Source of the DNA: a virus | IMG/VR virus record: IMGVR_UViG_3300045988_175974 | Direction: 5' to 3' (one strand) | Length of the DNA stretch: 64,000 nt | Shown: positions 21,152 to 50,240 of the stretch, one piece after another | Layout: each line of letters opens with the position of its first letter | How positions within the stretch are numbered: the first letter of the stretch is position 1 | Translations under genes and position numbers: made by a program | The notes under the pieces: generated by a model | Seen by the model: the letters and a program-made list of their open reading frames with translations, nothing else | What the model was told of the DNA's origin: nothing | The model's database searches: none

Positions 21152-22573
21152 TCAGAATATCCGATAATCTGGTTTGATTCTAATACTCTCGTAATGTCCT
21201 TTTACGTAAAAATATTTCCAAAAGTTATTACCTAGGTTGATGATGTTTCTCTTGCGTATCATATAGGTTTGATGATGCACGCAGAAGCCGAGATAAGAAT
21301 TGATTACCTGCTCTATTCTCTCCAGGTCATAATAGGTGATATTTCTGTTTTCGTCGAGCTGCTTTCTGAATCCGGAAACACGCTCCTGGAATCTGCCTAT
21401 GGTTCTCGAACTGACGTAGGTGCGACCGGGCTTGATATAGCCTCCTACGAACAGTACTCCGTGGCTAACAGGCTGCAAATATTTCTTGTCATTATGTATA
21501 TGGATTCCATAAATTGAGGTGACGGCTACGAGCCGGGGAACTACCTGGAGTATCTTATACTTATCATCGCAGATAATGAGAAAATCATCGACGAATCGGA
21601 TGATTCTGAAATTAGCTCCACGCATCAGGAAGAGAAGCCAGATGTCGAATAGGATGGATAGATAGAAATTAGCAAATTGCTGGGTAGTGTGATTGCCGAT
21701 AGGTCCGCCCAGGTTGCGGTCTATCGTGAACATTGATTTGCTTTTCGGTAGTTTTTGCCATTCTTTAGGATCGCCATTGATGATGCAGTCGTCTTCGGGG
21801 TGATGAAAAATAACGGTCTTCACGGTTCTGAGAAGAATTTCCTTGTCGCCTCCGTTGTAGTGCCTGCGGATAAAACGCTCTAGCAGGTACCATAAGAGAT
21901 TTCTGCGAATAGACATGAAGAAGCTTACCAGGTCGCCCTTGAATACCCAGGCTTGCTGGGTGTAATTCTCCGATACCTCCCTCATTCCTTTTTCCGCAGC
22001 CCTGACTGCTGCCAGTGTTCCGAATCCCTTGCGGCAGTTGAAGGAGATATTTCCCATCTGCCGGAATCGCTTCTCAAACAGTGGTTCCAGGCGAATAATG
22101 ATCCAATGATGCACGATACGGTCACGAAAATCCGCTGCGAAAACTTCTCGCAGTTTCGGGTATTTTACAAGAAAACAAATGGATATGGTTGGCAGGTATA
22201 TTGCCATGTAGATTTCGTAGGCTAATTTAGGTAAGTCTTCTGTGGCTATTTTCATATATGCGATAGTGTGAGGGGATGACATCTTTCCCCGCTTACAGTC
22301 AAGATAGGCTTCGCAAACTGCCTTGATAGCTTCTCTGAATCCCCCGTATGCCACTGCCGCCCTCACCGTTAAGCCGTTGTACTTGTTGTTGCCGTTAGTG
22401 TTGCCGTCGTTGGAGTTCACGTTCCACGCGTTGTTGCGGCTGTTCTCAGTACTAGCCCAATAGTTCGCGGATTTCTGCGGTATTGCATCTTCGTAACTTG
22501 CATGATCGGTAGAGCCGCCACTGCAAGTAAACCGCCCATTCAGTAAGATTCGACCTAGTTCTCTTCTGCTCAC
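21152..22573 (-). CDS. DGR-type reverse transcriptase. The ORF runs from GTG 22573; the true start is uncertain.
   Basis: Motifs include KRGK...PKLREVFAADFRDRIVHHW, GNHTTQQFANFYL and the catalytic box IRFVDDFLI. The TR lies within the first 97 codons. Confidence 0.85.
   Translation of the reverse strand: MSRRELGRILLNGRFTCSGGSTDHASYEDAIPQKSANYWASTENSRNNAWNVNSNDGNTNGNNKYNGLTVRAAVAYGGFREAIKAVCEAYLDCKRGKMSSPHTIAYMKIATEDLPKLAYEIYMAIYLPTISICFLVKYPKLREVFAADFRDRIVHHWIIIRLEPLFEKRFRQMGNISFNCRKGFGTLAAVRAAEKGMREVSENYTQQAWVFKGDLVSFFMSIRRNLLWYLLERFIRRHYNGGDKEILLRTVKTVIFHHPEDDCIINGDPKEWQKLPKSKSMFTIDRNLGGPIGNHTTQQFANFYLSILFDIWLLFLMRGANFRIIRFVDDFLIICDDKYKILQVVPRLVAVTSIYGIHIHNDKKYLQPVSHGVLFVGGYIKPGRTYVSSRTIGRFQERVSGFRKQLDENRNITYYDLERIEQVINSYLGFCVHHQTYMIRKRNIINLGNNFWKYFYVKGHYESIRIKPDYRIF
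22348..22473 (-). repeat. DGR template repeat (TR).
   Basis: 126 nt collinear with the VR. Translates as the Asn-rich YWASTENSRNNAWNVNSNDGNTNGNNKYNG. Confidence 0.85.
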
Positions 22574-26200: not shown

Positions 26201-29200
26201 CTTCTCCGTGGCAAGCACATAGTAGGTGTTCTTGGAACAGTTGTCCGTACCTGCCATAAAATGATTGATGAAGGCGTAATGGAAACGGAGGCTCTTTTCA
26301 TCGATATACCAGCCGACGTACTTTTTGAAGTGAGCCACGATAGCGGCAATCAGCTCTTCGTTGAGCTTGGCAAACTGCGCCTTATTAGCAGACGCATTAT
26401 AGGCAGCTTGCGTCATCTCGTAGGTACGGAGATCGATACGCTCGAAAGCGCCGTTCTTCCACAATCCGGCATCTACCCACTTCCTGTTTACGAAATTGTA
26501 TCGTTTCAGGACATAGGCATCATCACCCTGCGTACACCAATACTTGAACTGGGTATTCTTTGCCTCGTCAGACAACTGGAAATCATTGAAAGTGCCAACG
26601 TAATGTTTGATTCTCGGAGCATGCAGATAAATGAAGTTGAATATCTCAGCTATTCTATTGGTCAGATGGTCCTTCGGATATTCCTTGCCGTTTATCACGG
26701 TGGTGGCTCCCCCATCAAAATCGATGCACTGCAATCCGTTGTAGAAGTAACCCTCGTCATCCGGAGAATAGGTAATAACTTCAGGGCAGGTTTTATCCAA
26801 CGTAAACGGAACTCGCATATCCGTCAGGTCGTAGTTGTTATCCGAACCCTCAAACATAGCGAAGTTAGGATAAAGCTTCTTGACATATCCCCACGTTGGC
26901 TTATCCATCTTTCCAGCTCCGAAATTGCCGCCGCCACGGAATACAGGCTTGCTCTCTCCCTCGCCTTGCGTAAAGAAATATACAGGTTCGGTGTACTTGG
27001 CAACTCGTGCCGTAGAGCAGGCTTGCTGAAGCGAGTTCTTGCCCACAACGATGTCGTGAAGGTCGTTAAAGAGACGACAGCAACCGGTAAGGTGTGACTG
27101 CATGGAAGAGGCATAGTTGATTTTCAGCACCAGCTTCACAGCGTAAGGAGTATTGAAACCTACCTGATAGCCAGCACCGCGGTACTTGCCGTTGCCGTCA
27201 ATCCATCCGTCAGGAACCTCTACCGATGGCACACCCGCTACCTCTACGTATCTGTAGAGCTTTGCTTCATTCTTCACCGGATCAGATTTTCCGAGATTAC
27301 CACCGTAAATAGCGACGAATCTCTCTGTTTCCTGCGTCTCGGCATTGGTAACAGGGTCTTGCAATACCCACGTCAGGTTGCTGCCCAGATTTACGAGAGG
27401 TACGATAATAACACCTGCGTCCGAAATCTTGGTCTGGTGATTAGAGTAGAAGTAAGTGTTAGCGGTAGAACCCTGACGCTTATCCTTCATCTTGGTCTCC
27501 TTGCAGATGGTACCAGAAAGTTCCGGAATATAGTTGCCATCCTCGTCATATTGAAAAATCTCCCACCATACCTTCTGCGAACCGCTGTTGTAGAAGTACG
27601 GCTCCACGCCGTGCAGAATCAGCACACGTTTGCCGAGTGCCTTCACCTTCTCAACATCCACTTTCTCGCCCGTGAGAATGTCGTTGCGCTTGCGTGCCGC
27701 ATTCTTCTCCTCGGTGGTCGGCAGAGTAGAAATGTAATCATCAATGACATTCTTGCTCTCCAACTGCATGTTCTGGTAGCATCGGAACGAATAAATATCA
27801 ATATCGGCTGCCTCCTGACCGATGGTGATACCGCCGTTACTCATCGCTCCGGTGCAGAACTCCTCCTTGTTGGATGTAGAGAACTTCACTTCTCTCACCG
27901 GGTCGCCATTCAGAAAAATGCGCGCCAGCGGAATGGTCGTGGCTGCGGTATTCAGTGAATCACTGGTAGGTACCAGTGCATCACCTTTGTTTGGTATCAC
28001 GGCATTATGGATGTTCAGTGCCAGATGTACACGTTCATTTTCTTCAATGTGGAAATCTACCTCCGAGTCGGTGCTGTTGGATGCAGAATAGATATAGCCT
28101 TCCAATGGCAGGAGTTTGAAACCGATGGTATTGCCAGCCACCTGCTCGCAGATTTGGATGATTGCCTTCTTGGTATCGGTGACGTTGCGCACGCGAAGGT
28201 CGAACTCGAAGGTCATAGACGAATCCGGGGTAGTGTAAAACTGAGAGAACGGATTGAACTTGAAGTTGACCGATGATCCGGCAGGCACACGGAGCACCTT
28301 GATACCGTCTTCGGCAGTTACCCAACCGTCATTTACAAAACCGAAATTCTTCCAGGTGCTCGCCACCTCGGCATTGTTTGCCTTGGCATTATAAATCTTG
28401 CGAGGGTCCTTCTCGGTATTGTTGCGCACTTTTGGATTGAGCAGGAATGTGGCTCCTGCGGTAGGCGCATAAGCCTCGGTGTTATCGATGTCGATGCTGA
28501 CATTATCTACGCCCATACAGTCGGTGAGGAAATCCACCTCCTCGTCGCCTACCTTACGGTACGCACGGAAATAGGCAGTAAACTTGTTGGACTGCTCATC
28601 CAATTCAATTTCCACCGTAGTGGAGAGGGTTGACTGAACGCCAGGCTGCACGTCCTGCTCTACACGGAAGTATTCTGTCACCTTATCGGAAGGGAACTTG
28701 TCGGTATAGGAGGTAAGATAGAAGATGGTGGTAACATTACCGCCATCATTGGTGATGCTTCCATCGCTGTTTACCTTCGGGCTATACACCGCATAATCGC
28801 AAAGCTTCACCTGAGTGAAGTTGACCGCCTCCTTTACCAGGTTCTGAATCATCAGATACGGCTTTCTAATATCCACACCTGCGGTCTGGGGATTGATGAT
28901 CATAAAACGGTTCTCCAGAACATCCGATTTCAGCGTGCCACCCAATCCGTCGTCGCAGGTAAGCCAAGCCTTTACCAGTCGCACACCGTGAGTAAAGAGC
29001 TTGTAGGTATCTGTAGGGTCCTTGTAAGTGCTTCGCACGGTGGTTCCGTTCTCGGTAGAGGCAGAATCACGGTTGATGGTCAACACCTGACCATTGCCAC
29101 CGGTAATCTCTATATGCAGGGTTTTCTGCACCTCGCCGTTCACCAGGTAGGCATAAGGGAAACCATTCGCCTGCTGGGTAGCGGCATAGATGGGGGTATG

Positions 29201-29926
29201 GTAATCCTGCCGGCAACTCAAAGAGAGGTTGGCGAGGGTTACGGATGCACCGATCACTACATAGGTAGAAGCCTGGCTCTGCTGGTTGCCATCACCGTCG
29301 AGATAAGTAAATCTCGCCTGCACTCTCACCTGCTGCGTGCCATCGGTGAGATAGGGTCCCAGATCGATGTTCTTATATTCGGTGGTATTGGAATAATCGG
29401 TAGAATCCAATACTTCCTCCAGGGTCGCTACGGTCTGCCAGGCGTTTGTACCGCTCTTGCGCTGTACCACCAGTGTACCCTTACTGCCTACGTTCAATCG
29501 GTCGCCGTTACTGGTACGCACGGCGTGGAAACGAAGGGGAACAATCAGCTCCTTTTTCGCTACTACAAGATTTTTGGTAGAAGAGATGGTAGAGAAGAGA
29601 TAAGCGCCATAGCTATCTCCTTGCACGGTAGAGATAGGCAATGCCTCGTCAACAAGCAGGAGTGCCTTGATACTCGCATCCTCTTTGTCTCCTGCGGCAT
29701 AAGCTTTGTAGTCTGCCTCATTGCGGAATCCCCACAGGTGATAGTAGTTGCTGCTATCGACGGTAGGAGACCAATGGTAGTAACCGACCTTCCTATCGTG
29801 CTCCTTCAACAAAGCCTGTAATGCTTCTCTTACCGCCTTACCCGAATAAGGCAAGCCGTTTCGTGCATCCTTACCCCAGTCTTCGGTAAGGACGTTGATA
29901 ATTTTGTTTTGACTGATTTTTGCCAT
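23255..29926 (-). CDS. Giant tail-fibre or receptor-binding-like protein (2,223 aa from ATG 29926) with a C-terminal C-type-lectin/DUF1566-like DGR-variable domain.
   Basis: Uninterrupted ORF. The C-terminus reads ...GNWYLPSEGELARVYNF...YWASTESSRGYAWHVYSYDGYTGGYYKYISFSVRAAVA. The ORF-track start at 29968 is a TTG. Confidence 0.85.
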   Translation of the reverse strand: MAKISQNKIINVLTEDWGKDARNGLPYSGKAVREALQALLKEHDRKVGYYHWSPTVDSSNYYHLWGFRNEADYKAYAAGDKEDASIKALLLVDEALPISTVQGDSYGAYLFSTISSTKNLVVAKKELIVPLRFHAVRTSNGDRLNVGSKGTLVVQRKSGTNAWQTVATLEEVLDSTDYSNTTEYKNIDLGPYLTDGTQQVRVQARFTYLDGDGNQQSQASTYVVIGASVTLANLSLSCRQDYHTPIYAATQQANGFPYAYLVNGEVQKTLHIEITGGNGQVLTINRDSASTENGTTVRSTYKDPTDTYKLFTHGVRLVKAWLTCDDGLGGTLKSDVLENRFMIINPQTAGVDIRKPYLMIQNLVKEAVNFTQVKLCDYAVYSPKVNSDGSITNDGGNVTTIFYLTSYTDKFPSDKVTEYFRVEQDVQPGVQSTLSTTVEIELDEQSNKFTAYFRAYRKVGDEEVDFLTDCMGVDNVSIDIDNTEAYAPTAGATFLLNPKVRNNTEKDPRKIYNAKANNAEVASTWKNFGFVNDGWVTAEDGIKVLRVPAGSSVNFKFNPFSQFYTTPDSSMTFEFDLRVRNVTDTKKAIIQICEQVAGNTIGFKLLPLEGYIYSASNSTDSEVDFHIEENERVHLALNIHNAVIPNKGDALVPTSDSLNTAATTIPLARIFLNGDPVREVKFSTSNKEEFCTGAMSNGGITIGQEAADIDIYSFRCYQNMQLESKNVIDDYISTLPTTEEKNAARKRNDILTGEKVDVEKVKALGKRVLILHGVEPYFYNSGSQKVWWEIFQYDEDGNYIPELSGTICKETKMKDKRQGSTANTYFYSNHQTKISDAGVIIVPLVNLGSNLTWVLQDPVTNAETQETERFVAIYGGNLGKSDPVKNEAKLYRYVEVAGVPSVEVPDGWIDGNGKYRGAGYQVGFNTPYAVKLVLKINYASSMQSHLTGCCRLFNDLHDIVVGKNSLQQACSTARVAKYTEPVYFFTQGEGESKPVFRGGGNFGAGKMDKPTWGYVKKLYPNFAMFEGSDNNYDLTDMRVPFTLDKTCPEVITYSPDDEGYFYNGLQCIDFDGGATTVINGKEYPKDHLTNRIAEIFNFIYLHAPRIKHYVGTFNDFQLSDEAKNTQFKYWCTQGDDAYVLKRYNFVNRKWVDAGLWKNGAFERIDLRTYEMTQAAYNASANKAQFAKLNEELIAAIVAHFKKYVGWYIDEKSLRFHYAFINHFMAGTDNCSKNTYYVLATEKDVTIDGETRHCVLMELHQDDVDTIMATDNNGRFTKKYYVDRMHPYADNDKTTSQYEGMNNVLFNLCEEAYENTRELQSMLKSIFSAMCKLVSENDHIEGWNGTSKVSVWGCLWKYLFYVNCYFSEIAFAEQARIRYEYPAMLGFISSGSGARGVAPITQSCGSSILGERQYMKQRLVYMASYAAWGNLFDGGKSENIGVADVTDTFAMQAFHLPDSATSATEYKFKVKPSQYLYPTGMMGQTSVDPHVRVAPDEEYELNLGTTTSNDTGLSILGINYYHSIGNIGNLSTSPNLSVTINGKRLTEVIAEPTMLYKDMVTGKMVPAFRPNNIIVSALQVQKLSLKGCVEIGGSLDTTNLVRLHTINVKDTAIYDVRLPKSKVLTSVALPANLSKLSLSELPVLKMVSLQGASQLVSLECDDSSLGISSEALVTSIYEYKQEGSPLALSTVKLTGVNYRSMRADVLRYLTAAKSSTISGKIILIDGSAGLLTFAEVFDLIEKYGNIQSTSNPLYVSYPKRTISKIQVGGDKYIKQTGIWNQWKLDILPTSGNNIAVRNNRPAVDYQFVGDNAEQAGQYAEFTDHVKGTLNVKKLSDASLDLKFQVRVRIELTDGTELTYTKGVGFYNRIPRVGDFAYSDGSFDDELDTSKTCVGVVFKSEKLSDSQIRLRVYSAENVSYVSDDKTINSSYIPWGIFPAITDNTDGNNYLLYTVGQDVLDEIGTAVGVGDICDIADLPNGYTRELYNTNEDGELKEDGRITTESYQDTTTEDGYKVLDPKSRLNEFDGKSNTDAIVRWANNVISLYLDESYPKTLQELSNRMAALVKKKADEGATYPDTWKQLYYPAAYGCHLYEPSVSGTSTLNEQYKKGNWYLPSEGELARVYNFFGNSRGWQNNTAASIDYANERPESEAVTPLFANLLKRAKDKSAVCPVAMMYQSAVYWASTESSRGYAWHVYSYDGYTGGYYKYISFSVRAAVAFTFSL
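23272..23397 (-). repeat. DGR variable repeat (VR) encoding the last ~42 residues of the target protein.
   Basis: 108 of 126 positions are identical to the TR. 17 of the 18 mismatches fall at TR adenines (coding strand). Confidence 0.85.
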
Positions 29927-30058
29927 ATAAAATATGTTTAATTTTTCCAACCTAGATTTTCCGTCCAAGGCTTCTCGTTAAGCCATAGACCGCTAGCGAA
30001 GCATGATAATACCGCTACCGCTGCCATTAACAATCGTCTTCTGAATCTACTCATAAGC

Positions 30059-30838: not shown

Positions 30839-33800
30839 TTAACTTATTACATAACATACAATCCACTGACCACCATTGTACCATATCCAACTTACTTGTC
30901 CTCTTGTATCCGAATACCAGGTTGTTGCTGTTTTGAAATTACGAGAATCATAGATACTTTTATTCGTTGAAAGTGTCACCCTACCTCCTTGCTGAATGAC
31001 CGTGTAGCATTGACCAAGTTTTGGGGAGGATGGCAGCGTTAGCGTTATTGCTGACGTATTGTCGCACGCCACCGTGTGATTATACTCAGTAAGAGTGTAG
31101 TTTGATGTAATCCTCACGAAAGACGGTCTTAAACCTATCACATCTCCACCACGTATGACGATAGCATGATTACCCTCGTAAGCGTTTGTTGAATCAAAAC
31201 TACCGGCTTGGTCAGCCCAACGCGTGCGTAAGTCTAATGCCGTACACATCTTTCCGCCTGAGATTGGGTCAGATGGCGTTACTGTTCCCGCAGTTATATC
31301 GACAAGAATACCTGTGCTTACGTTGTTAGATTCACTTGTAGTAGAAACTATCCGAAGCCCTGTATCTAAATAGCTACCGCAAGTTATAAAGTAACCTCCA
31401 CCGTGCAAATAGGAACGATTCATAAACTTCAAATACTCGCTAGACAACCCCATGCCTTCATTTTGCCCAACAGCACCTAAAGAATTTTTATAAATTGAGA
31501 ATCCGGCTATACTTCCGCTTGTTGCGTCAATTCGGCCTGTTACATCCGCATTAGTCATCTTAACCGCGCCATTTCTTTTAACGCTAAATGGAGCTGAAGC
31601 CCCGTCTGATGCGCCAAGCCACAGAGCGTAATCATCAGATGTGGCAGCGTAACGGAACGAACCCCAGAGCGTATCACCATCCATGATGTTAATCTGCTGC
31701 GAATTTGCCATTGTGATAGTGGCATTCGCTGCGAGCAGAAGCTTGGTTGCTACAAGGTCGAAGTTACTTCCTTGTGCCCAGTGTTCCGTATCATTAACAC
31801 TCGGTGACGATGATCGGTAGGATTTTATACAGTAATATACCTGCCCATCCACGACAACTACATCAATGAACTTATCGGTATCTTTAGTACCGTCGGAGTA
31901 ATCGTAACTTCCAGTCTCGAAGCCATCGTGAGTTCGCTGTATCGGACCCTTTGTTCCCCGTGGACCAGAACCGCCCTGTTCACCCCTATACGCAACGGTA
32001 TGCGACAAACACGAACCTTTTAATACTCCGCTATCCGTGAGGCTCTTGTACGTGATGGTGTGAGAGTTCTTTGTGTCCGTTGCTGTACCGACTACGGTAA
32101 ACAAATCATCTACACGGCATCCATTACGCTTGCTGGATGTATCTGAGTCGAACGTCCAGACTGTACCATACGTTCCTGCGTTATTCCATGTACTCTCATT
32201 CCAATCAGTTTTGGTTATGCTGGTTACATTTCCTACGCCCTGCTTGCCTGTGTCTCCCTTCGGTGCTTTGTATGCCCACAGAGCTGGAGAAGACCATAAG
32301 CCTTGCGAAACATTAGGCGTACCAACCTTACCCTCGTAATACGATACATAGACATAGCGGTTATCGTCTGTCGGAGATGGTGGGTCATCCACCCAGCCGC
32401 TTGATAACTTGCCGTTGCTTCTCGATGGCTTGCTAGGTGGTGTGGAAGAGTTGGAGAGATAGAAGACGTACTCGTATCCGTCACCATCTACGCCAGAGAC
32501 GTTTGGAAGAATGGTGAGAGTGATGGTATCAGAATAGCTGGCATTATCCAGTTTTCCGCTAACCTTCACCTTAACAACCTTGCTGCTTTTGCCCAGTGCA
32601 TAACTCTTTGCATACGATACGTTGATAGTTGTGCCGCTGATACTTACGCCCGAAGGGAGACTATCGGCTGATACCGAGAGGCTAGAGCAAAGCTTGCCAT
32701 CTACCACCAGCGTGCAGGATATAGCTTCGGAGAATGCAGCAAGGGAATTTCCTGCACTATCCGTAGGAATCGTCACGATATAATCTGACAGCGTAGCCTT
32801 TGCTGCGTGCTTTCCGAAATGCGCATACTCGGCAGGTTCAGAAAATGCTCCCCAATGACCATTGACAGAAACTCGCTTGCTTACCCATTCGTACAGATTC
32901 ACGGCATCCACACCAGTTGGGTCATCCGTCCAACCGCTAGGAACGTATTCCTTGTCGGTTCGTAGATACTCTGCATTCGTACTCCAATCGCTAGGAGTTG
33001 GGTTGCTTGGAGGAGTGGAATCCACCGTGCGCTTGAAGATATACTCGATACCCTTTCCATCCTTGCCGAAAGATACGATAGGAACCATCTCCTGATCGAG
33101 AAGTGAACCCTTGTTGTCATAAAGTGCAAAAGTGATTCGAGTGTGGTCGGTGGATGCTGTTGCGCTGCCGCCTAATGCCAATGCCGTATCAGCCGTATCT
33201 CCGTAGCCATATTTTAGCTGATAGCCCGAAGGAAGCGCTGAGAGTGCATATCTCTTGTCATCGCTCGATGTAGCATACACTTTACAGCTTACGCTACTAA
33301 CGTTTAGATTTCCATCCTTATCTACCACTACACTATCCACGGAAGGCACTACATCATAGACAATCATATCTGCCGAACGGAGAATAGTAAGTTCCTTGGT
33401 ATATTCATAGCTTACACCTGCATACACACCAACCACCGTGATAGGGATCTTGATAATCTGTTCGAGAATATCCGATGTGATATTGTCTGCATCAATCGTA
33501 ACCACTTTCTCCTTGTCCTGCAAGCTGACAGAAGCCTTCAAACCGTTTACCGCTCCTACGCTTAAATCGGAAATCTCCCAAGGAGTGTTCTGGTACATCA
33601 AACTTACCTTTGTTGTGATAGGCAGACCGATGTATTTTGCGGTCTTGGTGTTCCAGGCGATAGAAGCATTTTCGTTGCTCAAATCGCACACCATAAATGG
33701 TAGCGAGTCGTGATGAATGCGGACAGGGAACTCCAGGTTCTTTGTTACCTTGCCTTCCAGTTCTACCACGATAGTAATAGAACAGGCGGAAATCTTGCGC

Positions 33801-35746
33801 ATAGCATCGTAATCGAAGTCTGCATCATCAGCAGAGCCAGCTACACCATCCTTAATCTTATTAATGCCAGTAAGGAACACCGCACCATTCTCTACCTTTA
33901 CGTCACAACCGTTGCCGATTGCATATACACGATAATGCCCTGCGGTACATTCCATATTCTTCTCATCTTCGAGAAGAAGCAAATTCTCACCCTTATGAGC
34001 AAAGATAGCAGTGGAGATACGGTATTGCTTGACTCCTGCTTCATCGACCGACCACAGACCATTAATCACGTTGCCCAAATCATCCACCGTAATAACGGCG
34101 GCAGGCTGCGACATCGTGACATCATAGGCAGCTACATCGAGTTTCAGGCTATCCAAATCCTTAATCTGAGAGAGCGTAATCACGGCTCCACCGAGATACA
34201 CATTGTTCTGAGCAAAAAGACCATTACCCTTCAGGTTCTCCCAAGTGCCATCAGTCTTCTTCACTCGCAATCCTCCGAGCCAACCATATCTCGTTACTCG
34301 GTTTTCTGCCTGAATCTCCCAAGTATTCACGCCGTCGAGTACCTCGATGTAGCTTCTGCCGCGAGAGCAAAAGTACATACTGCTCTGTCGCTGCTCGTCC
34401 GTGAAGTTACCATATTGAGCGAAATCCATAAAGGCACAAGGATCAGGAGTTCCCTCGGAACGCTTACCGTACTCAAAGACAAACTTGCCTTTCTCTGCCG
34501 TGATAATCTTCTTGACGTAGAAATAGGTCGTGAAGAAACCTCGGTGCATAGTGAAACCGCATTCATCCATCTCACCCTCGTTGTTGGTATCAGAGCCGTA
34601 GGCATTCTCAATATCAGCATAGATACCTCGGCAAATATCACCTACGGACAGAGAACCGTAATCATTCTCTTCTAGTTTCAAATCGATGGTATGGTTGGTT
34701 ACGTCCACACTCTTGATAGTACCATAGCCGTTGGTGTTCCACTGCTCCGCTTTTGTAACGGAAATCTCATTGAAGACGAATTTCGGGGCAGAAATAAACT
34801 GTCGGGCAAAGATGGAATTGGCTTCCATATTGCCGTGCTCGTCAATCTGCGCTCCGTGGCCATACAAACCCTGCTCGAAATTATTGGTAAGGAACTTGAA
34901 TACCGAAAGAACACCTTCTCGTGTCCATTGTCCGGCATTATCGCCAATATCCATACCTGCCAGGAACTTCTGCACCTTTTCAAAGGTAATCGCGCCATGG
35001 GCTACATCATCCTTGTCTTTCGCCAGGAAATGCTTCACGCCAAACTGACCCAGATATAGAGGAGTAACCACCTTCGTGTTATCCGTCTCCAGGCTGAGAT
35101 CATTGGCTACGCCATTCAACTCGCTACCTCCGAGGGATAGCTTCGTGATTTTTGCAACCTTGGCAGTCAGCGTATCAAAGGTGGCAGAGAGGATGGTTTT
35201 GAGGAAGGAGATGGAATCGGTGACGGAATTATACTTCCACCAGGTGCCATCGATACCGCTCGAAAGGGATTCGTCGGTATTCAGTTTTCCACAATCCACG
35301 TGCTGGAGCCAGTCACGCTTGCGGGTCTTGCCATCTGCATCGGTTCTTACTTCAGAGATGATGCCCTGCAGATAGATGTAGTAGTATCTCTCGTCGCCTA
35401 CCAGCTTGTCGGGATTGGCGATGGAGTAGCCGTATAGATCGATGCGCTCGCTCGGATATACCACCACGGCGGTATTGTTGTCGGCGGTGCTCGTGCGGGG
35501 GATGGCTGCATAGATGTACTTCCGCTCGGAATCAGGGAAGACGGAAGGGTAGGCAGCAAGAGGCCAGCGCTGGTAGTTATGACCGGCATCGTACTCCAGA
35601 CCCGGAATGCCCTGCATATAGCAGAGGATGGATGCGCCGGAGACTACGCTACACTGAATGTAATCTGGCTCACCCATCGCATTAAGCTGGATGTAAAGCG
35701 CACTGCTCGAAATCCAATAATTCGTATTCTTTGCTTCTGTTGCCAT
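30839..35746 (-). CDS. Giant tail fibre/spike-like protein (1,635 aa from ATG 35746; an alternative ATG is at 35770).
   Basis: Internal repeats of the type G(I/Y)EY(I/V)F...PP(S)...P...GW(T/V)DDP are typical of phage fibre proteins. The ATG at 35770 is only 8 nt from the -7 box. Confidence 0.75.
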   Translation of the reverse strand: MATEAKNTNYWISSSALYIQLNAMGEPDYIQCSVVSGASILCYMQGIPGLEYDAGHNYQRWPLAAYPSVFPDSERKYIYAAIPRTSTADNNTAVVVYPSERIDLYGYSIANPDKLVGDERYYYIYLQGIISEVRTDADGKTRKRDWLQHVDCGKLNTDESLSSGIDGTWWKYNSVTDSISFLKTILSATFDTLTAKVAKITKLSLGGSELNGVANDLSLETDNTKVVTPLYLGQFGVKHFLAKDKDDVAHGAITFEKVQKFLAGMDIGDNAGQWTREGVLSVFKFLTNNFEQGLYGHGAQIDEHGNMEANSIFARQFISAPKFVFNEISVTKAEQWNTNGYGTIKSVDVTNHTIDLKLEENDYGSLSVGDICRGIYADIENAYGSDTNNEGEMDECGFTMHRGFFTTYFYVKKIITAEKGKFVFEYGKRSEGTPDPCAFMDFAQYGNFTDEQRQSSMYFCSRGRSYIEVLDGVNTWEIQAENRVTRYGWLGGLRVKKTDGTWENLKGNGLFAQNNVYLGGAVITLSQIKDLDSLKLDVAAYDVTMSQPAAVITVDDLGNVINGLWSVDEAGVKQYRISTAIFAHKGENLLLLEDEKNMECTAGHYRVYAIGNGCDVKVENGAVFLTGINKIKDGVAGSADDADFDYDAMRKISACSITIVVELEGKVTKNLEFPVRIHHDSLPFMVCDLSNENASIAWNTKTAKYIGLPITTKVSLMYQNTPWEISDLSVGAVNGLKASVSLQDKEKVVTIDADNITSDILEQIIKIPITVVGVYAGVSYEYTKELTILRSADMIVYDVVPSVDSVVVDKDGNLNVSSVSCKVYATSSDDKRYALSALPSGYQLKYGYGDTADTALALGGSATASTDHTRITFALYDNKGSLLDQEMVPIVSFGKDGKGIEYIFKRTVDSTPPSNPTPSDWSTNAEYLRTDKEYVPSGWTDDPTGVDAVNLYEWVSKRVSVNGHWGAFSEPAEYAHFGKHAAKATLSDYIVTIPTDSAGNSLAAFSEAISCTLVVDGKLCSSLSVSADSLPSGVSISGTTINVSYAKSYALGKSSKVVKVKVSGKLDNASYSDTITLTILPNVSGVDGDGYEYVFYLSNSSTPPSKPSRSNGKLSSGWVDDPPSPTDDNRYVYVSYYEGKVGTPNVSQGLWSSPALWAYKAPKGDTGKQGVGNVTSITKTDWNESTWNNAGTYGTVWTFDSDTSSKRNGCRVDDLFTVVGTATDTKNSHTITYKSLTDSGVLKGSCLSHTVAYRGEQGGSGPRGTKGPIQRTHDGFETGSYDYSDGTKDTDKFIDVVVVDGQVYYCIKSYRSSSPSVNDTEHWAQGSNFDLVATKLLLAANATITMANSQQINIMDGDTLWGSFRYAATSDDYALWLGASDGASAPFSVKRNGAVKMTNADVTGRIDATSGSIAGFSIYKNSLGAVGQNEGMGLSSEYLKFMNRSYLHGGGYFITCGSYLDTGLRIVSTTSESNNVSTGILVDITAGTVTPSDPISGGKMCTALDLRTRWADQAGSFDSTNAYEGNHAIVIRGGDVIGLRPSFVRITSNYTLTEYNHTVACDNTSAITLTLPSSPKLGQCYTVIQQGGRVTLSTNKSIYDSRNFKTATTWYSDTRGQVSWIWYNGGQWIVCYVIS

Positions 35747-35778
35747 TTTTTTGTTTGGATTTTTATTCATTTATAGGG

Positions 35779-35815
35779 CAAAGATAAAGGTTTTTGCGGT
35801 TTTAAGGGGGACAAA
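35779..35815 (-). promoter_or_regulatory. Promoter: TTTGTCCCC, N20 spacer, TATCTTTGCCC.
   Basis: Plus strand shows CAAAGATA at 35779-35786 and GGGGACAAA at 35807-35815. Confidence 0.55.
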
Positions 35816-35962
35816 AAAGCTTTTGCCCTTTCAGGGCGCATTGATGCTGCTGCCATTACCCAGGGTGTTACCCTGGGCTAGGAGCTGCTGCCCCTTCAGG
35901 GCGTATAGACGACGATAAGGGCAGCAGGGCGTATAGGCGATGATAGGACTGCAGGGCGTGCT
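35815..35962 (-). repeat. Family A repeat, copy A3, with extra CAGGGCGTATAG-type modules.
   Basis: AAAAGCTTTTGCCCTTTCAGGGCG...TACCCAGGGTGTTACCCTGGGCTAGGAGCTGCTGCCCCTTCAGGGCG followed by two further CAGGGCGT repeats. Confidence 0.85.
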
Positions 35963-35964
35963 GG

Positions 35965-37014
35965 CTAGAGGTAGGGACTTCCGTTGATGTCGAGCTTGGC
36001 TGTGAAGGAAACAGAGTACATATTCTGCGTGGTATTATCGCTGATCGTTATCTCGTCCTCCTGGGTGATGGTGCAGGAGAGCCAGGTATCTTTTACCTTC
36101 AGCCAGACGTGCTCACTCATCAGAAACTCGTGAAGGTACCAGTAGAGCCAGGCGGTATCGAGGGGGTCGCTCTGATAAAGCCACGACTCACGGTTATTCT
36201 GCTTCTTGATAGCGGACCGGGAGAAGGTATTGAAGGTTTCCTGCACGGCTATTGTATAAGGGGTGGTTTCTACCGAAAGCTTCTTGCTGTAGGCTTTCGG
36301 GATATTGATGCTCTCCAGGCAGCCACGGGCATTGATGAAGCGGAAGGTACTGCGGGTTTCGGCTTCCGAGGATGGCAGAGCATAGAGGGCGTGACCGCCA
36401 ATAGTCTGCGAGCCTTCCTTTGTGATTTTCTGTTCGGAAGAGGTAGGAGCGGTGAGTGCGGTGCTGGATGCCAATATCTGTGAAGAGACATAGGAGACTG
36501 GGTAGGAGAAGGATTCGCCTACAACGGTGACTTCGGGGATAGAAGTTGGCTTTCGGGAGAAGTCTTTTACTGCTGGGGATGGATTGGATAGAATGCGCTC
36601 CATATCCGACATGGCTCCTGCTATGCAGCGAAGGTCAGTATCGGTACCTGCGACAGGCTTCTGGGGATAATAGACCTCGCCTACACCGGTATGCACTTCG
36701 CCGTTTTTGTTCATATACTCATCGTAGGCTTTTATGTACCATCTTACGAGCGGGAAGGTTTTTGTGGTGGCGGTGTACGGGAAATTGTCGAGAGGGATGC
36801 GGAGTGCAGAGGAGACATCCAGGGCTACGTTATTGCCTTCGGTGGTGACGGGTACCGTGAGCTTCACGGTTTCGTAGCTTCCTCCGTTATCAAAGTTTAC
36901 TTCTATGATGACACGGTGGAAGGAGGGGCTATCCAGCGTTTCGGGCTGGATGGTGAAGGTGATGGGGTTTCCGGCAAAAATGGAACCCGATGTGAGATTA
37001 ATTTTCTTTGCCAT
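35965..37014 (-). CDS. Hypothetical virion-module protein (349 aa), translationally coupled to the ACP gene.
   Basis: Its start lies 1 nt after the ACP stop. The sequence looks beta-rich and structural. Confidence 0.6.
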   Translation of the reverse strand: MAKKINLTSGSIFAGNPITFTIQPETLDSPSFHRVIIEVNFDNGGSYETVKLTVPVTTEGNNVALDVSSALRIPLDNFPYTATTKTFPLVRWYIKAYDEYMNKNGEVHTGVGEVYYPQKPVAGTDTDLRCIAGAMSDMERILSNPSPAVKDFSRKPTSIPEVTVVGESFSYPVSYVSSQILASSTALTAPTSSEQKITKEGSQTIGGHALYALPSSEAETRSTFRFINARGCLESINIPKAYSKKLSVETTPYTIAVQETFNTFSRSAIKKQNNRESWLYQSDPLDTAWLYWYLHEFLMSEHVWLKVKDTWLSCTITQEDEITISDNTTQNMYSVSFTAKLDINGSPYL

Positions 37015-37015
37015 A

Positions 37016-37261
37016 TTATTCTTTCTTTTTAATTACGAGATTGGCTATATCCGAAACAAGCTTGCAATCTTTCGCCTCTTCGGGGGTAATCTTGATGTGG
37101 AACATCATTTCTACCTGCTGAATGAGATCGAGGAAATCGATGGATTCTAGCTGAACCTCATCACGAAGATTGGAAGAGGGAGTTACCTCGTGGTTGACCC
37201 ATGAGGTTTTCAGTCTGTTTACGATGGCGATAATGCGAGGAGTTATTTCTTCTTTTTTCAT
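37016..37261 (-). CDS. Acyl carrier protein-like (81 aa).
   Basis: The segment LRDEVQLESIDFLDLIQQVEMMFHIKITPEEA matches the ACP helix II region, with Ser in an (D/E)S(L/I)D context. Confidence 0.7.
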   Translation of the reverse strand: MKKEEITPRIIAIVNRLKTSWVNHEVTPSSNLRDEVQLESIDFLDLIQQVEMMFHIKITPEEAKDCKLVSDIANLVIKKKE

Positions 37262-37263
37262 AA

Positions 37264-38466
37264 CTATGCTTTTGAGATGATAAAGGATGAATTGGTACCG
37301 CCAAAACCGAAGGCGTTACAGAGAATATGGTGAGGTGCATAGAGCTTCGGGCGCATCACCAGATTGAGGGATGGGAAGGCATTCTCCTCGGTCGTTACCG
37401 CGCCAAAGAGACTGCCGTAGGTGAGCATCATCACGGCTTGCACGGCTTGCGATACGCCTGCCATCCAACACTCATGACCGGTTAAGCCTTTCGTGGCTAC
37501 TACGTTCGGACAGATAGGAAAAATCCTTGTGATGGCGTTGGCTTCGGCTTCATCTCCCATTGGGGTACCGGTGGCGTGAGCGAGAACGACATCTATCATA
37601 CCTTCGTCCAATCCTGCGTTCTCAATGGCGTGAAGCATGGATACTTCCTCCTGATAGGTATCGGGGGTAGTGATGGCTTTTCCATTAGACGAGAAACCAT
37701 AGCCGGAAAGAGAAGCGAAGGAATGCACTTTCTCTTCTTTCAGACGAAAGCTATCCGATGGTTCGAGGATGATACAGGCTGCGCCACCTGATGGTGCCAA
37801 TCCGTTTCTACCTTTGCCAAACGGCTGCACCTTATCGGGTGAGAAGACACCGAGGGCATCGAATGCTTCCATGCAGTATTGAGATCCGCATTCCTGCGCG
37901 CCAATCACGATTACCATTTCCGTCTGCTTGCTATTGAGAAGCATCTTGGCAAGACCAATAGCGTGACCTCCTCCGGCACATGCTGCGCTTACGGTAAGCG
38001 ATAAGCCGTGGATATGAAGGATAGATGCCAGGTTCATACTGATAGTGGAGTTGAGCGAACGGAACAATGTTTCTACAGACAATGTTCTGTTATGTACTCC
38101 ATAGCCTATATGATTCACCACCGACCGACTTTCGTAGCATTCAGAATCATTACTTACGATAATAGACACGTTGTGATTTTCAAGAAAATCCTTACTAATT
38201 TTTGCTTCTTTTAAAGCTTCAAATACTGCATCGAGTACATAAAAGCCATGAAGGGGCAGGCATGCTCTCTGCGCACGAGTGAGAATTTCGTTATATTCTT
38301 CTACCCAAACAGGCACATTGCCGCATAAATCGGAATTGTATTTATCGCGGCATTCGTCGTGATGCAATCCGCATTTACCCTTATAAAGGTTCATGGCTAC
38401 TTCTCTGGTACTTCTGCCTAGGGCAGAATGAATACCTGTTCCGGTAATTAATATCTTTTTATCCAT
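37264..38466 (-). CDS. Beta-ketoacyl-ACP synthase, KAS I/II (FabB/FabF-like) type, 400 aa.
   Basis: ITGTGIHSALG; active-site Cys in SAACAGGGHAIG; His motifs HATGTPMGDEAE and KGLTGHECWMAG; C-terminal NAFGFGGTNSSFII. Confidence 0.85.
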   Translation of the reverse strand: MDKKILITGTGIHSALGRSTREVAMNLYKGKCGLHHDECRDKYNSDLCGNVPVWVEEYNEILTRAQRACLPLHGFYVLDAVFEALKEAKISKDFLENHNVSIIVSNDSECYESRSVVNHIGYGVHNRTLSVETLFRSLNSTISMNLASILHIHGLSLTVSAACAGGGHAIGLAKMLLNSKQTEMVIVIGAQECGSQYCMEAFDALGVFSPDKVQPFGKGRNGLAPSGGAACIILEPSDSFRLKEEKVHSFASLSGYGFSSNGKAITTPDTYQEEVSMLHAIENAGLDEGMIDVVLAHATGTPMGDEAEANAITRIFPICPNVVATKGLTGHECWMAGVSQAVQAVMMLTYGSLFGAVTTEENAFPSLNLVMRPKLYAPHHILCNAFGFGGTNSSFIISKA

Positions 38467-38509
38467 TTTATTATTCTTTTTATGTTATAAAACATATTTT
38501 TTTTATCTG

Positions 38510-38598
38510 AAAGCTTTTGCCCTTACAGGGCGACATAAACCACATTCCATATACCCAGGGTGTTGCCCTGGGCTAGGAGCTTCTGCCTTTACAGGGCG
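38510..38598 (-). repeat. Family A repeat, copy A4. Its last hairpin overlaps the final codons and stop of the 949-aa gene.
   Basis: AAAGCTTTTGCCCTTACAGGGCG...TACCCAGGGTGTTGCCCTGGGCTAGGAGCTTCTGCCTTTACAGGGCG. Confidence 0.85.
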
Positions 38599-41438
38599 TA
38601 CACAGTTAACTCTACTTCGCCCATACCCGTCTTGGCATCAATGGTGGTATTCACCTTGTCAATGAGGCATTTCATACCGCCTATGTTCCACCAATCCTGC
38701 CAGTGATTCGGTATATCGGCAACTTGTGCTACGGTGGTGGTGCATCTTACCATGAACTTCTTTCTGTTCAGAAGGAAGTAGGCGTAGGGAAGAATGAAGG
38801 TGTCAAAGAGGCCGCGAGAGCGGATTTTAGTCACTACCTTGCCGTTCTCATCTACTTCATCGGCATTGCAGAGTACCAAATCCTTATACTTCGGATCTTT
38901 TAGCCACGATGGTTCCTTGAAGGCTCGTATCTTCAGAGAAAAACGCTCACCATCACCTACACCTTCCTGCACACCGTTATAATCAAACACGTTGCCCATC
39001 ATATCCAGCGAGTCGCAAGCTAGGGCATACTTACCCGATACGGTGCGCCATTTGGAGGTTCCGAAATGATCGTAGTTGTAATCGTAAGACTGTCGGGTAG
39101 CATCGCTACCACCGCCACGCATCAATGCAACCGCAAAGCCCCATCGTGAATCATCCTGCAACGGAGAATTGCCATCATCGGTATCCGACGGGTCGTAGCT
39201 TTCTACAAGCGATAGGGTTTGCTGCATATAAAAATCGCAGAAAGCAGTGGAAATAGTCTGATTGATAATCTGCTCAACAAACTCATGCTCCATATCCTCA
39301 TCTACATAAGCGCAGAGAATAGGCTGACTATCGGCAATGGTTACACCATATTTCTTGCCGTTATAGGAGTCGATTGCCTCGTGAGAGCCATAGGCAGCCT
39401 CTATCTCTTTGAAATAATTGACATCATTAAACGGAACAGGAGTAAAATCTACCGAAATATCGTGAACGAAATCTTCGTTTTCATCACTGCAATCTCCATA
39501 TTCCACACCCTTGAACTGGCCTACCTCAAAGAGTACCGGTTTCAAGTCGGCTGTCGTGGTTGCATCACTATTCACCTTTACGCGATAAGCGTTGCCAGTC
39601 TTGCGGTCGATATAGCAGTGCTTATCTCCACTACTCAGATTATGGAAGAAATCGATGTAGTCGAGATTATAGACGGTGGAGTTATCGCCACTATCAGGCG
39701 CAGGGTAATCGATGTAATCGTAATCGGTAGAATAACCCATATTCTTGTTTTTGCGGCTATCGAGCACATTCTGCCGCTGATCTTTTGCGTCGCTCTCTGC
39801 CGAATAGCGCATACGTACACCGGTAATCTTTTCGGTCATCGGGACCATGGAGTGGATATTGGCATGGAAAGTTCTCGCCTCGTTGCCGCTCTTGCGTAAC
39901 ACATCACGGGTAAGGTAAGCTGTTACCTTCTTCTGTTCGTAATCATACGAAAACTTGATACCAAAGGCGCTTTCAAGTGAAGAGATAACGGAACTTACGC
40001 TCTCATCAGGGAAATTGCCGCTGTTGGCTACCATATTGAGTACGTTTGCCTGCACCTTGAACTTGCTGATTTTTGCCTCGATGCTGATACCAGTGACCTT
40101 GCCGCCATCATCACGAACCTCGCCAACCTGTATATGCTCGGTGGTGCCTTCGGGTGTGTGGAGTGTTAATTCCTGCACGTCCTTATTCTCTGCCTTCACG
40201 ATGTTTATCTTTCCGCCGCAACCACGGCTTTCCAGCCATGAATTGATATGCTCCTGACTTTGAAAATAACCCGTCTTGATTTCGCCAGCTTTCTTCTTCT
40301 TGGCGATGACTTCGGCATCGTCTTTTCGATAATAAGTGCCATGGTGAGTGTGAAGACCAGGTTGTTTTGCACCCGTAGGGTCTTCCTCGTCGTACTGGTA
40401 GCTGACAGTATCGTAACTGCATACGGTCGTGAAGAAGCAGAGATGCTTCAAATCCTCTATCTCCATCAATGCCTTCTTGTCGAAAGTTACGCCCAGATAG
40501 GCAAAAAGGCAATCGAGGAAATAGAGCACATAGAAGCAGATACCCGACTGCGGACGTTTTGCATCCAATACCCAGTAAGGATAAAGGTCTTCGTTCGTCC
40601 AGGTGCAATCTTTTATGCTGATTACATCACTTGCGGTCTTTCCGTCATCATCTAACCCGTGATGCTTATAGCAGATACGAGCGTTACAATAGGTAGCGGC
40701 TCTGCCTGCACCATCTGTTTCACCATAAGCTGCTGCGGTATTGATATAATTGCCATTGCTGGCAATGACTGGCTCATTTACCTTGTGATTCTGAGGATAA
40801 GAACGCTCTGAAAGCTTCCGTGCATCACCCATATAATGCTGGGTAGATGTAGAAGTGTATTCATTGCAGCTTGCAGGGTAGGAAAAACCTAAGGCTTGCG
40901 GTTCCAAGACCTTGCTTACGCTTACATGGTCTGCCCTAATTTCGTGGTTTTCCGTATGATCATGCTTATGCTTGCCTCCAGTAACAAATACATCTACCTT
41001 TACTACCGGATCACTTTCAATATCCACCCTTACGTTTCCTATCTTCTCGCCGATGATAATCTGGTCCTTCACCGGAATATCTCGGCACTGCAGGTCGCTG
41101 ATAAGCTCGCTGAAACTCTGCGTGCTGGCATCGATATTCATGCTGAGTGAATTGGTTATTTCCTCACCATCCTGCATAACCAGGGTACCGCTGCGGAAAG
41201 GCAGTCCGTCGGCATTGATACGAGTAGGCAGGTGCTCCATGTTGACGGCTCTTACCGCCGCATGCACGTCCTCAATGTTCTTTACCAGCCAACGGTTGCC
41301 GTCTAGCGGAATGGAAAATGGATAGGAGAACATTTCCGTATCGTTGAATACCGGATTCTGATCCTCTATATCTATAGAGAAATCATCGGGCAGAGCCACC
41401 GGCTTATCTTTGATTAATATAGAGAGATGCGAGTTCAT
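38589..41438 (-). CDS. Large virion protein (949 aa), function unknown (baseplate or tail-hub-like by position).
   Basis: Long ORF in the structural module. It overlaps the upstream gene by 4 nt. Confidence 0.65.
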   Translation of the reverse strand: MNSHLSILIKDKPVALPDDFSIDIEDQNPVFNDTEMFSYPFSIPLDGNRWLVKNIEDVHAAVRAVNMEHLPTRINADGLPFRSGTLVMQDGEEITNSLSMNIDASTQSFSELISDLQCRDIPVKDQIIIGEKIGNVRVDIESDPVVKVDVFVTGGKHKHDHTENHEIRADHVSVSKVLEPQALGFSYPASCNEYTSTSTQHYMGDARKLSERSYPQNHKVNEPVIASNGNYINTAAAYGETDGAGRAATYCNARICYKHHGLDDDGKTASDVISIKDCTWTNEDLYPYWVLDAKRPQSGICFYVLYFLDCLFAYLGVTFDKKALMEIEDLKHLCFFTTVCSYDTVSYQYDEEDPTGAKQPGLHTHHGTYYRKDDAEVIAKKKKAGEIKTGYFQSQEHINSWLESRGCGGKINIVKAENKDVQELTLHTPEGTTEHIQVGEVRDDGGKVTGISIEAKISKFKVQANVLNMVANSGNFPDESVSSVISSLESAFGIKFSYDYEQKKVTAYLTRDVLRKSGNEARTFHANIHSMVPMTEKITGVRMRYSAESDAKDQRQNVLDSRKNKNMGYSTDYDYIDYPAPDSGDNSTVYNLDYIDFFHNLSSGDKHCYIDRKTGNAYRVKVNSDATTTADLKPVLFEVGQFKGVEYGDCSDENEDFVHDISVDFTPVPFNDVNYFKEIEAAYGSHEAIDSYNGKKYGVTIADSQPILCAYVDEDMEHEFVEQIINQTISTAFCDFYMQQTLSLVESYDPSDTDDGNSPLQDDSRWGFAVALMRGGGSDATRQSYDYNYDHFGTSKWRTVSGKYALACDSLDMMGNVFDYNGVQEGVGDGERFSLKIRAFKEPSWLKDPKYKDLVLCNADEVDENGKVVTKIRSRGLFDTFILPYAYFLLNRKKFMVRCTTTVAQVADIPNHWQDWWNIGGMKCLIDKVNTTIDAKTGMGEVELTVYAL

Positions 41439-50116: not shown

Positions 50117-50207
50117 AAAAAAGCTTTTGCCCTTACAGGGCGACTTACTGATTGCTATTATACCCAGGGTGCTGCCCTGGGCTAGGAGCTTCTGCCCTTT
50201 CAGGGCG
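50117..50207 (-). repeat. Family A repeat, copy A5.
   Basis: AAAAGCTTTTGCCCTTACAGGGCG...TACCCAGGGTGCTGCCCTGGGCTAGGAGCTTCTGCCCTTTCAGGGCG. Confidence 0.85.
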
Positions 50208-50240
50208 TGTGGGGTTAAGGTTCTTTTTACCTTTTTACCT

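Follow-up and report, generated by a model that had tools for sequence, protein, structure and literature searches.

The 64,000-nt stretch of viral DNA analysed here (hereafter the window; IMG/VR record IMGVR_UViG_3300045988_175974) carries, among the large genes of a tail module, two abutting genes encoding a beta-ketoacyl synthase (KS) and an acyl carrier protein (ACP). Positions are counted from the first letter of the window, and all genes of the locus are located on the minus strand (Table 1). The pair is preceded by the backbone gene p949 and followed by p349 and p1643, with a gap of 2 nts between the KS and ACP genes and of 1 nt between the ACP stop codon and the start of p349. The open reading frames (ORFs), their coordinates and both gaps are as reported in an earlier reading of the window made without database searches (the sequence-only reading).

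The stop codon of p949 reads within the first hairpin of the repeat in the p949/KS spacer, a possible promoter region. A sigma-70 scan, which does not cover Bacteroidota promoters, returned 6 sites against 4.4 expected, i.e., background, and an intrinsic-terminator scan of the KS-ACP region found no terminator. The G+C content at third codon positions (GC3) of the pair differs slightly from that of most neighbouring genes. Downstream of p349, the p1643 ORF measures 1643 aa from its first ATG and 1635 aa from its second, which is likely to be the true start.

Table 1. Features of the KS-ACP locus, followed by the diversity-generating retroelement (DGR) and the dispersed hairpin repeat of the same window
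Feature	Position	Strand	Description
p949	38589-41438	-	Large backbone gene upstream of the insertion site
Spacer p949/KS	38467-38588 (122 nt)	-	One host-type double-hairpin repeat (core 38566-38587), then an A/T-rich leader
KS	37264-38466	-	400 aa, predicted FabB-like elongating beta-ketoacyl synthase
ACP	37016-37261	-	81 aa, acyl carrier protein paired with the KS
p349	35965-37014	-	Conserved structural-module gene, outside the insertion
Spacer p349/p1643	35771-35964 (194 nt)	-	One more host-type hairpin repeat (core 35871-35892)
p1643	30839-35770	-	Large, variable, tail-fibre-like, downstream of p349
DGR reverse transcriptase	21152-22573		phrog_1423 match
DGR template repeat	22348-22473		126 nt, 86% identical to the variable repeat
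DGR variable repeat	23272-23397		Coding for the lectin-type Lcl_C domain at the C-terminus of the 2237-aa protein
DGR target	23255-29968		2237-aa protein
Double-hairpin repeat (53 nt), five intergenic copies	16356-16408, 20398-20450, 35855-35907, 38550-38602, 50159-50211		

The condensing enzyme and its carrier protein

The KS had been described as a 400-aa enzyme of the beta-ketoacyl-ACP synthase (KAS) I/II type with an apparently intact Cys-His-His triad, and domain searches, structural alignment and conservation among relatives all agree with this description. Both Pfam domains, ketoacyl-synt N (1.5e-24, 87.4 bits) and Ketoacyl-synt_C (3.3e-19, 69.5 bits), score well above their cut-off of 20.8. 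The protein aligns over its full length to FabB structures (4xox, 1.4e-37; 1dd8, 3.2e-35), with C163, H297, K326, H331 and NAFGFGGTN in register with C163/H298/K328/H333/F392 of FabB. These residues belong to the motifs SAACAGG (Cys163), HATGTP (His297), ATKGLTGH (Lys326/His331) and the NAFGFGGTN gating loop. Cys163, His297, Lys326, His331 and GFGG are invariant across 61 phage sequences, and a pairwise ratio of nonsynonymous to synonymous substitutions (dN/dS) of 0.12 indicates purifying selection. The concern that the catalytic residues would prove unconserved once properly aligned, which had been raised with the original description, is answered by their register and invariance.

The phage enzyme has the same fold and length as E. 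coli FabB and FabF, together with the triad, the Lys and the GFGG loop, and differs from them in lacking their versions of the active-site motifs and in being paired with an ACP of its own rather than with AcpP. Its identity to the two E. coli enzymes is only 23-26%. FabB (KAS I) provides both the best-scoring curated model and the best-scoring structure, but every NCBIfam cut-off is missed (161.6 bits against 630 for KAS I/FabB; 158 against 493.75 for FabF). Because no curated FabB or FabF cut-off is reached, the KS is best classified as a true but divergent condensing enzyme and not as an orthologue of either.

The ACP-like protein that had been noticed 2 nts after the KS matches the Pfam family PP-binding (PF00550; 1.8e-6, 28.5 bits, cut-off 20.8) and the phage ACP family phrog_5934 of PHROGs, so that the profile searches by which the sequence-only reading was to be checked placed both KS domains and the carrier domain above the gathering thresholds. 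Ser40 lies in an E-S-I-D motif and is invariant (E-S-x-D) in the 61 sequences, and the pairwise dN/dS of 0.17 again indicates purifying selection. The net charge of the protein is -2, with a clade median of -4 and a range of -9 to +1, compared to -15 for E. coli AcpP and -7 to -8 for the ACPs of aryl-polyene (APE) clusters. Throughout the viral KS lineage, an ACP gene adjoins the KS wherever the flank is readable; the contig L386 is cut within the KS.

Carriage, insertion sites and host of the phage lineage

A total of 63 IMG/VR contigs, most of them 50-110 kb long, carry the KS. In 61 of them, wherever the locus extends far enough, the order p567-p386(DUF6712)-p371-p217-p949-KS-ACP-p349-p1643 is kept, which extends the placement of the pair among large tail-module genes from the window to its relatives and answers the synteny search that the sequence-only reading had proposed. 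KS identity ranges from 59 to 95% across these 61 contigs, in step with the divergence of the flanking phage genes. The KS, ACP and p349 ORFs are intact in every locus (pairwise dN/dS of p349, 0.15). The exact KS sequence of the window occurs on 14 contigs, and a large protein database contains thousands of copies more than 90% identical to it, from gut metagenomes, on contigs of ~100-108 kb. In total, more than 70 viral contigs share the conserved pair, which occupies two or more positions in their genomes. The synteny, the intact ORFs, the invariant residues and the low dN/dS values exclude a chimera or a decaying passenger gene, and both genes are under strong purifying selection and apparently working.

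An assembly chimera or contaminating host DNA, one of the outcomes that the sequence-only reading had allowed for, is accordingly a negligible prospect. Some GenBank "phage" records with FabB/FabF-like matches do look like host contamination, and the fragment MT837464 clusters with bacterial cluster KSs. Against an artefact at this locus stand the same synteny on 61 independent contigs of ~50-110 kb and on ENA assemblies, a KS divergence that parallels that of its phage neighbours, and the distinct monophyletic lineage formed by the viral KSs. Nor are homologues confined to bacterial chromosomes, as would have been expected had the phage linkage been spurious, since 61 viral contigs are syntenic.

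Deposited phage genomes (50,697 records) hold no relative of this phage lineage. In these records, blastn matched only repeats of ~90 nts, the matches to GenBank "Bacteriophage sp." entries being due to the hairpin repeat described below, and tblastn with the major capsid protein candidate and p949 returned nothing. The best KS match among them is MT837464.1 ("UNVERIFIED: Bacteriophage sp.", 6.8 kb; 37% identity), whose KS groups with Bacteroidales cluster KSs and not with the viral lineage, and which is probably bacterial DNA in virome data. The only other matches were host-like FabB/FabF genes of ~25% identity in doubtful records.

A search with p949 revealed a sister clade (L141-L159; p949 45-50% identical) which has p949, p349 and p1643 without KS or ACP. 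The empty site is a short A/T-rich spacer without the hairpin repeat. Since p949 is directly followed by p349 in these genomes, the insertion consists of KS-ACP only and p349 belongs to the backbone. The sister clade also lacks the pair at the second site, next to the tape-measure gene, described below. Across KS-bearing and KS-less clades, p949 is conserved at 45-97% identity; it has no Pfam, PHROG or PDB match, and its AlphaFold2 model, built from a shallow alignment, reaches a predicted local distance difference test (pLDDT) score of 28. The model of p349 (pLDDT 62.6) is almost entirely beta-strand and has 81 significant matches in BFVD, all of them phage proteins and many from phages of Bacteroidota, one being annotated "Structural protein" (Cellulophaga phage phiST). 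A Foldseek search of the PDB with the same model gave no significant match (best E 0.017), with weak tail-tube and baseplate names only. Judged by this model, p349 belongs to a phage structural-protein family. The modelling of the 349-aa protein, which had been suggested at the outset, therefore supports the view that this gene is structural, whereas its inclusion with KS and ACP in a single trio does not hold. The protein encoded by p1643 matches PHROGs of unknown function, its N-terminal ~300-550 aa being conserved and the remainder variable, and a p1643-like protein precedes the tape-measure gene in the phage L062. Sequence searches of solved structures returned nothing for p567, p949 and p1643.

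The repeats on both sides of the trio, which had been taken as the borders of a cassette, do exist, but they are two of five intergenic copies of the repeat in the window and are therefore not specific to the KS locus. The 22-nt core of the repeat, CCCTGGGCTAGGAGCTKCTGCC, was found at 120 or more places in reference genomes, often as inverted pairs ~150 nts apart, and the matches listed are almost all to Segatella copri or related Prevotella chromosomes or metagenome-assembled genomes (MAGs), including complete isolate genomes. It thus appears to be a host-type interspersed element, similar to repetitive extragenic palindromes (REP) or miniature inverted-repeat transposable elements (MITE), which is common to phage and host. 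A trio cassette bracketed by repeats was rejected on both counts, p349 being backbone and the repeats being dispersed and host-type. Fragments of the phage were also binned with Prevotella MAGs. From the dispersal of the repeat core in S. copri and from these bins, the host is very probably the Segatella (Prevotella) copri complex.

The tight spacing of the genes in the window is likewise a local feature. Across genomes, the KS-ACP spacing varies from -4 to 83 nts, reaching 363 nts once, and the ACP-p349 spacing varies from 1 to 116 nts. Because the spacers vary and contain hairpin inserts, the tight coupling seen in the window is not conserved, and a conserved translational coupling was rejected. 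In L007, L010, L015, L030, L036 and L049, hairpin inserts of ~60-116 nts separate KS, ACP and p349, and in L036 tandem and inverted repeats make up an insert of 363 nts. The repeat family that flanks the trio in the window was considered as the source of these inserts and rejected, since they are different small hairpins. The spacers between KS, ACP and p349 appear to be hotspots for small mobile hairpin elements.

A profile search with the viral KS revealed further viral contigs of ~90-107 kb, derived from other metagenomes (L062/L383, L374-L384 and L386; 38-45% identity), in which the pair occupies a second site. There, the order is tape-measure gene, 379-aa gene, ACP, KS (overlapping the ACP), a BT4734/PriCT-type primase-like gene and ThyX, as seen in nine contigs with the tape-measure flank in view, L382 and L386 showing the downstream flank only. 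The order of ACP and KS is reversed relative to the clade of the window. The L062 KS retains all catalytic residues despite an insertion of 41 residues, and a neighbour-joining (NJ) tree recovers the viral KSs, with that of L062 joining the window clade, as monophyletic with 100% bootstrap. One further contig, L385 (IMGVR_UViG_3300045988_148428, 160,875 bp), carries KS followed by ACP (34% identity) and lacks the backbone genes of this phage group in the vicinity of the pair; it may represent an independent acquisition or another phage family. Matches below ~31% identity are ordinary FabF-like genes without an adjacent ACP.

From these comparisons, KS-ACP is one viral lineage, always paired, patchy in distribution and present at two or more sites, as expected of a selected accessory cassette rather than of a component of the virion, and its position in the tail module is incidental. 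This incidental position and the absence of the pair in relatives argue against its use for acylating a virion or fibre protein or for making an adduct used in adsorption, both of which the sequence-only reading had offered. In such a role, the pair would make an acyl or polyketide group for a tail or fibre protein, or KS and ACP would be packaged or ejected as such, to the benefit of adsorption or penetration. That all 61 genomes of the clade have the pair flanked by large tail-module genes, and that a single nucleotide separates the ACP stop codon from p349 in the window genome, would suit such a role, and late co-expression is plausible. It is nevertheless improbable, because the sister clade has the same structural module (p949, p349 and p1643) without KS-ACP and L062-like phages carry the pair elsewhere, by the tape-measure and primase-like genes. 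In addition, the coupling to p349 is not conserved (spacers of -4 to 363 nts for KS-ACP and 1 to 116 nts for ACP-p349), the genome-wide Pfam scans described below found no acyltransferase or thioesterase that would move a chain onto a protein, and p349 has relatives in many phages of Bacteroidota, with no link to KS or ACP in the structure search.

As a discrete insertion between backbone genes, with an empty site in relatives, a patchy distribution, alternative sites and a GC3 slightly unlike that of most neighbours, KS-ACP resembles morons, the accessory genes found between conserved late or tail genes of tailed phages. A classical moron is one gene equipped with a promoter and a terminator, and its expression often takes place from the prophage. 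In contrast, KS-ACP comprises two genes for which the sigma-70 and terminator scans showed neither promoter nor terminator, and no integrase was seen.

Relation to flexirubin and aryl-polyene clusters and possible role

The KS carries a subfamily signature, TGHECWMAGVSQ, which is common to the KSs of Bacteroidota flexirubin and APE clusters. The motifs HECWMAG, AHATxTP, MNSTxxMN and SFDALG are shared with the cluster KSs L066, L067, L070 and L072, and the first three, of which HECWMAG follows the second catalytic His, are absent from FabB and FabF. Two scans of genome contigs with a HECW pattern returned at least 577 and at least 598 KS relatives, and the best 80 of each are almost all from Bacteroidota. 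The nearest cellular KSs are 37-42% identical to the phage enzyme and all come from this phylum. The gene order is shared as well, an ACP starting right after the KS stop codon in 76 of the 80 best Bacteroidota loci among the matches listed, and the phage ACP profile scores best on the ACP adjoining the cluster KS or on the first ACP of a tandem pair.

In clusters from rumen Bacteroidales MAGs, the KS lies near an O-methyltransferase, two ACPs (one of which passes the PRK09184 cut-off), a fusion of KS and chain-length factor (KS/CLF), family 2 glycosyltransferases (GT2)/acyltransferases, FAD desaturase-like enzymes, an MMPL exporter and an adenylating enzyme. In Chryseobacterium, the context comprises a halogenase, an aromatic amino-acid ammonia-lyase (TAL), a ketoreductase (KR), the KS and an ACP after a 5-nt gap, followed by a lipid-A-type acyltransferase and a desaturase-like enzyme, which we take to be the flexirubin branch of the APE family. 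The KS subfamily is also common in Prevotellaceae, the matches listed including Segatella oulorum, Prevotella micans and human-gut Prevotella MAGs, and a gut Prevotella assembly was reported to contain an APE cluster (PMC8863827). We infer that KS-ACP derives from the abutting KS-ACP core of such Bacteroidota flexirubin/APE-type clusters, which resemble type II polyketide synthases (PKS) and fatty-acid synthases (FAS), and that it has probably long been carried by a ~100 kb phage lineage of the S. copri complex. What the phage has amounts to no more than an excerpt of this kind of cluster: the subfamily motifs and the KS-then-ACP order are present, while TAL or the adenylating enzyme, KR, dehydratase (DH), KS/CLF, the second ACP, the O-methyltransferase, the acyltransferases and the MMPL exporter are missing. 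The phage copies also differ from their cluster counterparts in the long separate branch of the KS and in the loss of most of the negative charge of the ACP.

Pfam scans covered 19 window ORFs individually, 48 further window ORFs and 49 ORFs of the remaining genome, which was tiled from the close relative IMGVR_UViG_3300045988_158819. In the ~105 kb genome, these scans detected no phosphopantetheinyl transferase (PPTase), malonyl-CoA:ACP transacylase, KR, DH, enoyl reductase, thioesterase or lipid acyltransferase, a result which extends to the whole genome the lack of an acyltransferase, a PPTase and a reductase already noted in the window. The sole enzyme acting on acyl groups in these scans is a GNAT acetyltransferase. 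As none of the partner enzymes is encoded by the phage, the chemistry beyond condensation must use host enzymes.

That all other steps must be supplied by the host would also suit a general auxiliary metabolic gene (AMG) of fatty-acid synthesis, in which the pair joins the host FAS II and sustains or boosts the acyl supply for phospholipids or lipopolysaccharide (LPS) during late host shut-down. The KS is FabB-like, with its best NCBIfam and PDB matches in KAS I, acpP is found alone in many phages (phrog_5934), and fabG-acpP-fabF in three predicted roseobacter prophages were called AMGs, providing an in-silico precedent (PMC8224337). Like the roseobacter prophage genes and the phrog_5934 acpP, the pair consists of host-derived condensing and carrier genes without the remaining pathway. 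The roseobacter genes are of housekeeping type and in housekeeping order, with no evidence of conservation across a phage lineage, whereas the present pair is divergent, of cluster type, conserved and selected. A fatty-acid role is a minority option for further reasons: the KS bears the derived signature of flexirubin/APE clusters instead of that of FabB/FabF, to which its identity is low; a dedicated, weakly acidic ACP is strictly inherited together with the KS, which suggests that the pathway is insulated from AcpP-based FAS; and related phages do without KS-ACP.

The reading that we favour, with a probability of roughly 60%, is that KS-ACP is a two-gene accessory elongation module, similar to a moron or an AMG, which alters a lipid or polyene pathway of the host. 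In this scheme, a host PPTase would convert the phage ACP to its holo form, and malonate would be loaded on it by host FabD or by self-malonylation. The KS, as a homodimer similar to FabB and ApeR, would then perform the decarboxylative Claisen condensation on acyl or polyenoyl thioesters held by the phage ACP, and the product would be processed by host KR and DH and by downstream or tailoring enzymes. The phage would thereby add or redirect an elongation step that determines the rate or the chain length in a host lipid or polyene pathway, of the type producing outer-membrane pigments, and the envelope chemistry of the infected cell would be altered with nothing built into the virion. ApeR, a FabB-like homodimeric KS, raises APE throughput and favours shorter polyenes (PMC8358021).

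Several points weigh against this reading. The phage KS is only ~39% identical to cluster KSs, and in the phylogeny that the sequence-only reading had called for, the viral KSs are firmly monophyletic but group with the Bacteroidales cluster KSs at 39% bootstrap only, on a long branch. S. copri itself is not among the best 80 cluster-KS matches listed. Since the enzyme falls below every curated NCBIfam cut-off, its substrate could have changed. Moreover, the position of the aryl-stacking Tyr135 of ApeR is occupied by Leu138 in the phage KS, as aligned via FabB Met138 (equivalence of the ApeR and FabB positions from PMC8358021), and this difference from ApeR gives no positive sign of APE specificity. 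The phage ACP is much less acidic than usual, and host FabD, KR and DH might therefore not recognise it. Finally, the tail-module position in 61 genomes would also be compatible with late expression alongside virion genes.

Among the cellular copies listed, identity to the query Bacteroidales KS is 63-80%, compared to ~39% for the phage copy, which implies that the capture is old or that the phage copy is fast-evolving. A long, fast-evolving KS branch could also reflect a non-biosynthetic takeover or anti-defence function without useful product, in which the pair serves as a malonyl-ACP sink or decoy, titrates PPTase or FabD, or blocks a lipid-dependent host response; the retention of only two mutually binding proteins and the atypical surface charge of the ACP would be in keeping with it. 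We regard such a function as quite unlikely, given that the Cys, both His, the Lys and the GFGG gating loop are invariant, as expected of a true condensing enzyme, and that no known defence or counter-defence family was matched, PADLOC not being among the resources searched. Decarboxylase-only KS variants (KSQ/CLF) typically lose the catalytic Cys.

Remodelling of host envelope lipids is the only one of the roles offered by the sequence-only reading that fits the data, and it fits better given the origin in flexirubin/APE-type clusters. A more specific and tentative proposal, which we hold to be a good deal less probable than the elongation module itself, is that the phage lineage directs a lipid or polyene of its own through a private KS-ACP working on host enzymes, the product changing the outer membrane of the infected cell. 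Such a change might provide, e.g., superinfection exclusion, masking of receptors from the DGR-diversified fibre of competing phages, protection of the virocell from oxidative stress, or control of vesicle formation or lysis timing. Transfer of the product onto a virion protein would be a less likely variant.

Genome context and significance

Elsewhere in the window are genes for a head-maturation protease (57136-58689), ParA, ThyX, guanylate kinase, a GH108 lysin and DNA methyltransferases, and a 2092-aa tape-measure protein and a holin are encoded just past its high end. The phage is highly divergent, neither Pfam nor PHROGs detecting a terminase, portal or major capsid protein. Nucleotide-metabolism and head genes separate the tape-measure gene from the fibre/DGR module, which follows ~25 kb downstream of it. 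The rest of the genome encodes a DNA polymerase III beta clamp, a PAPS-reductase-like protein, an Rv2179c-like exonuclease, the GNAT protein and several DNA methyltransferases. Nearly all differences between the template and variable repeats of the DGR fall at template adenines, and the element is complete (Table 1).

Other features of the window were observed away from the KS-ACP locus. A LysR-family gene (53774-54675, minus strand) appears to be split by a frameshift near 54040-54076 into the ORFs 54031-54675 and 53595-54080; intact 301-aa homologues are found in L081 and L082. The gene could be a pseudogene or undergo programmed frameshifting, or the split could be due to a sequencing error. 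At 2127-2322, immediately upstream of the ParA-type ATPase gene (1142-1984), there are seven A/T-rich direct repeats of ~40 nts, degenerate and in part overlapping. These could act as iterons or as a partition site, which would hint at an episomal (plasmid-like) maintenance, and no integrase was seen in the Pfam-scanned phage ORFs. Three overlapping copies of a 44-nt G+C-rich direct repeat at 19432-19526 lie within a 178-aa ORF (19386-19922), the encoded protein segment being therefore repetitive.

PHROGs contains no family for the KS or for p349, and the searchable literature on KS or ACP in phages (including gut and Prevotella phages) and on aryl polyenes and phages gave no prior description of such a pair, in agreement with the initial impression that it could not be placed in any described phage function. 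As phage ACPs were already known, what is new here is a divergent KS-ACP pair of secondary-lipid-cluster type, conserved at two positions across an abundant lineage of gut phages.

Few phages are known for S. copri, which ranks among the most abundant and health-associated bacteria of the gut. The hairpin repeat shared by phage and host can serve as a new means of connecting uncultured phages with the S. copri complex. With only two genes, the pair also offers a tractable system for studying how a minimal KS-ACP module recruits foreign partner enzymes. A conserved and selected condensing enzyme with a private ACP implies that manipulating a host lipid or polyene pathway benefits the phage. The range of AMGs, which so far comprises central steps of fatty-acid synthesis, would thereby come to include part of a secondary-lipid (flexirubin/aryl-polyene-type) cluster. 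If the lineage does direct a lipid or polyene of its own, this would represent phage-programmed secondary-lipid biosynthesis in a dominant bacterium of the human gut.

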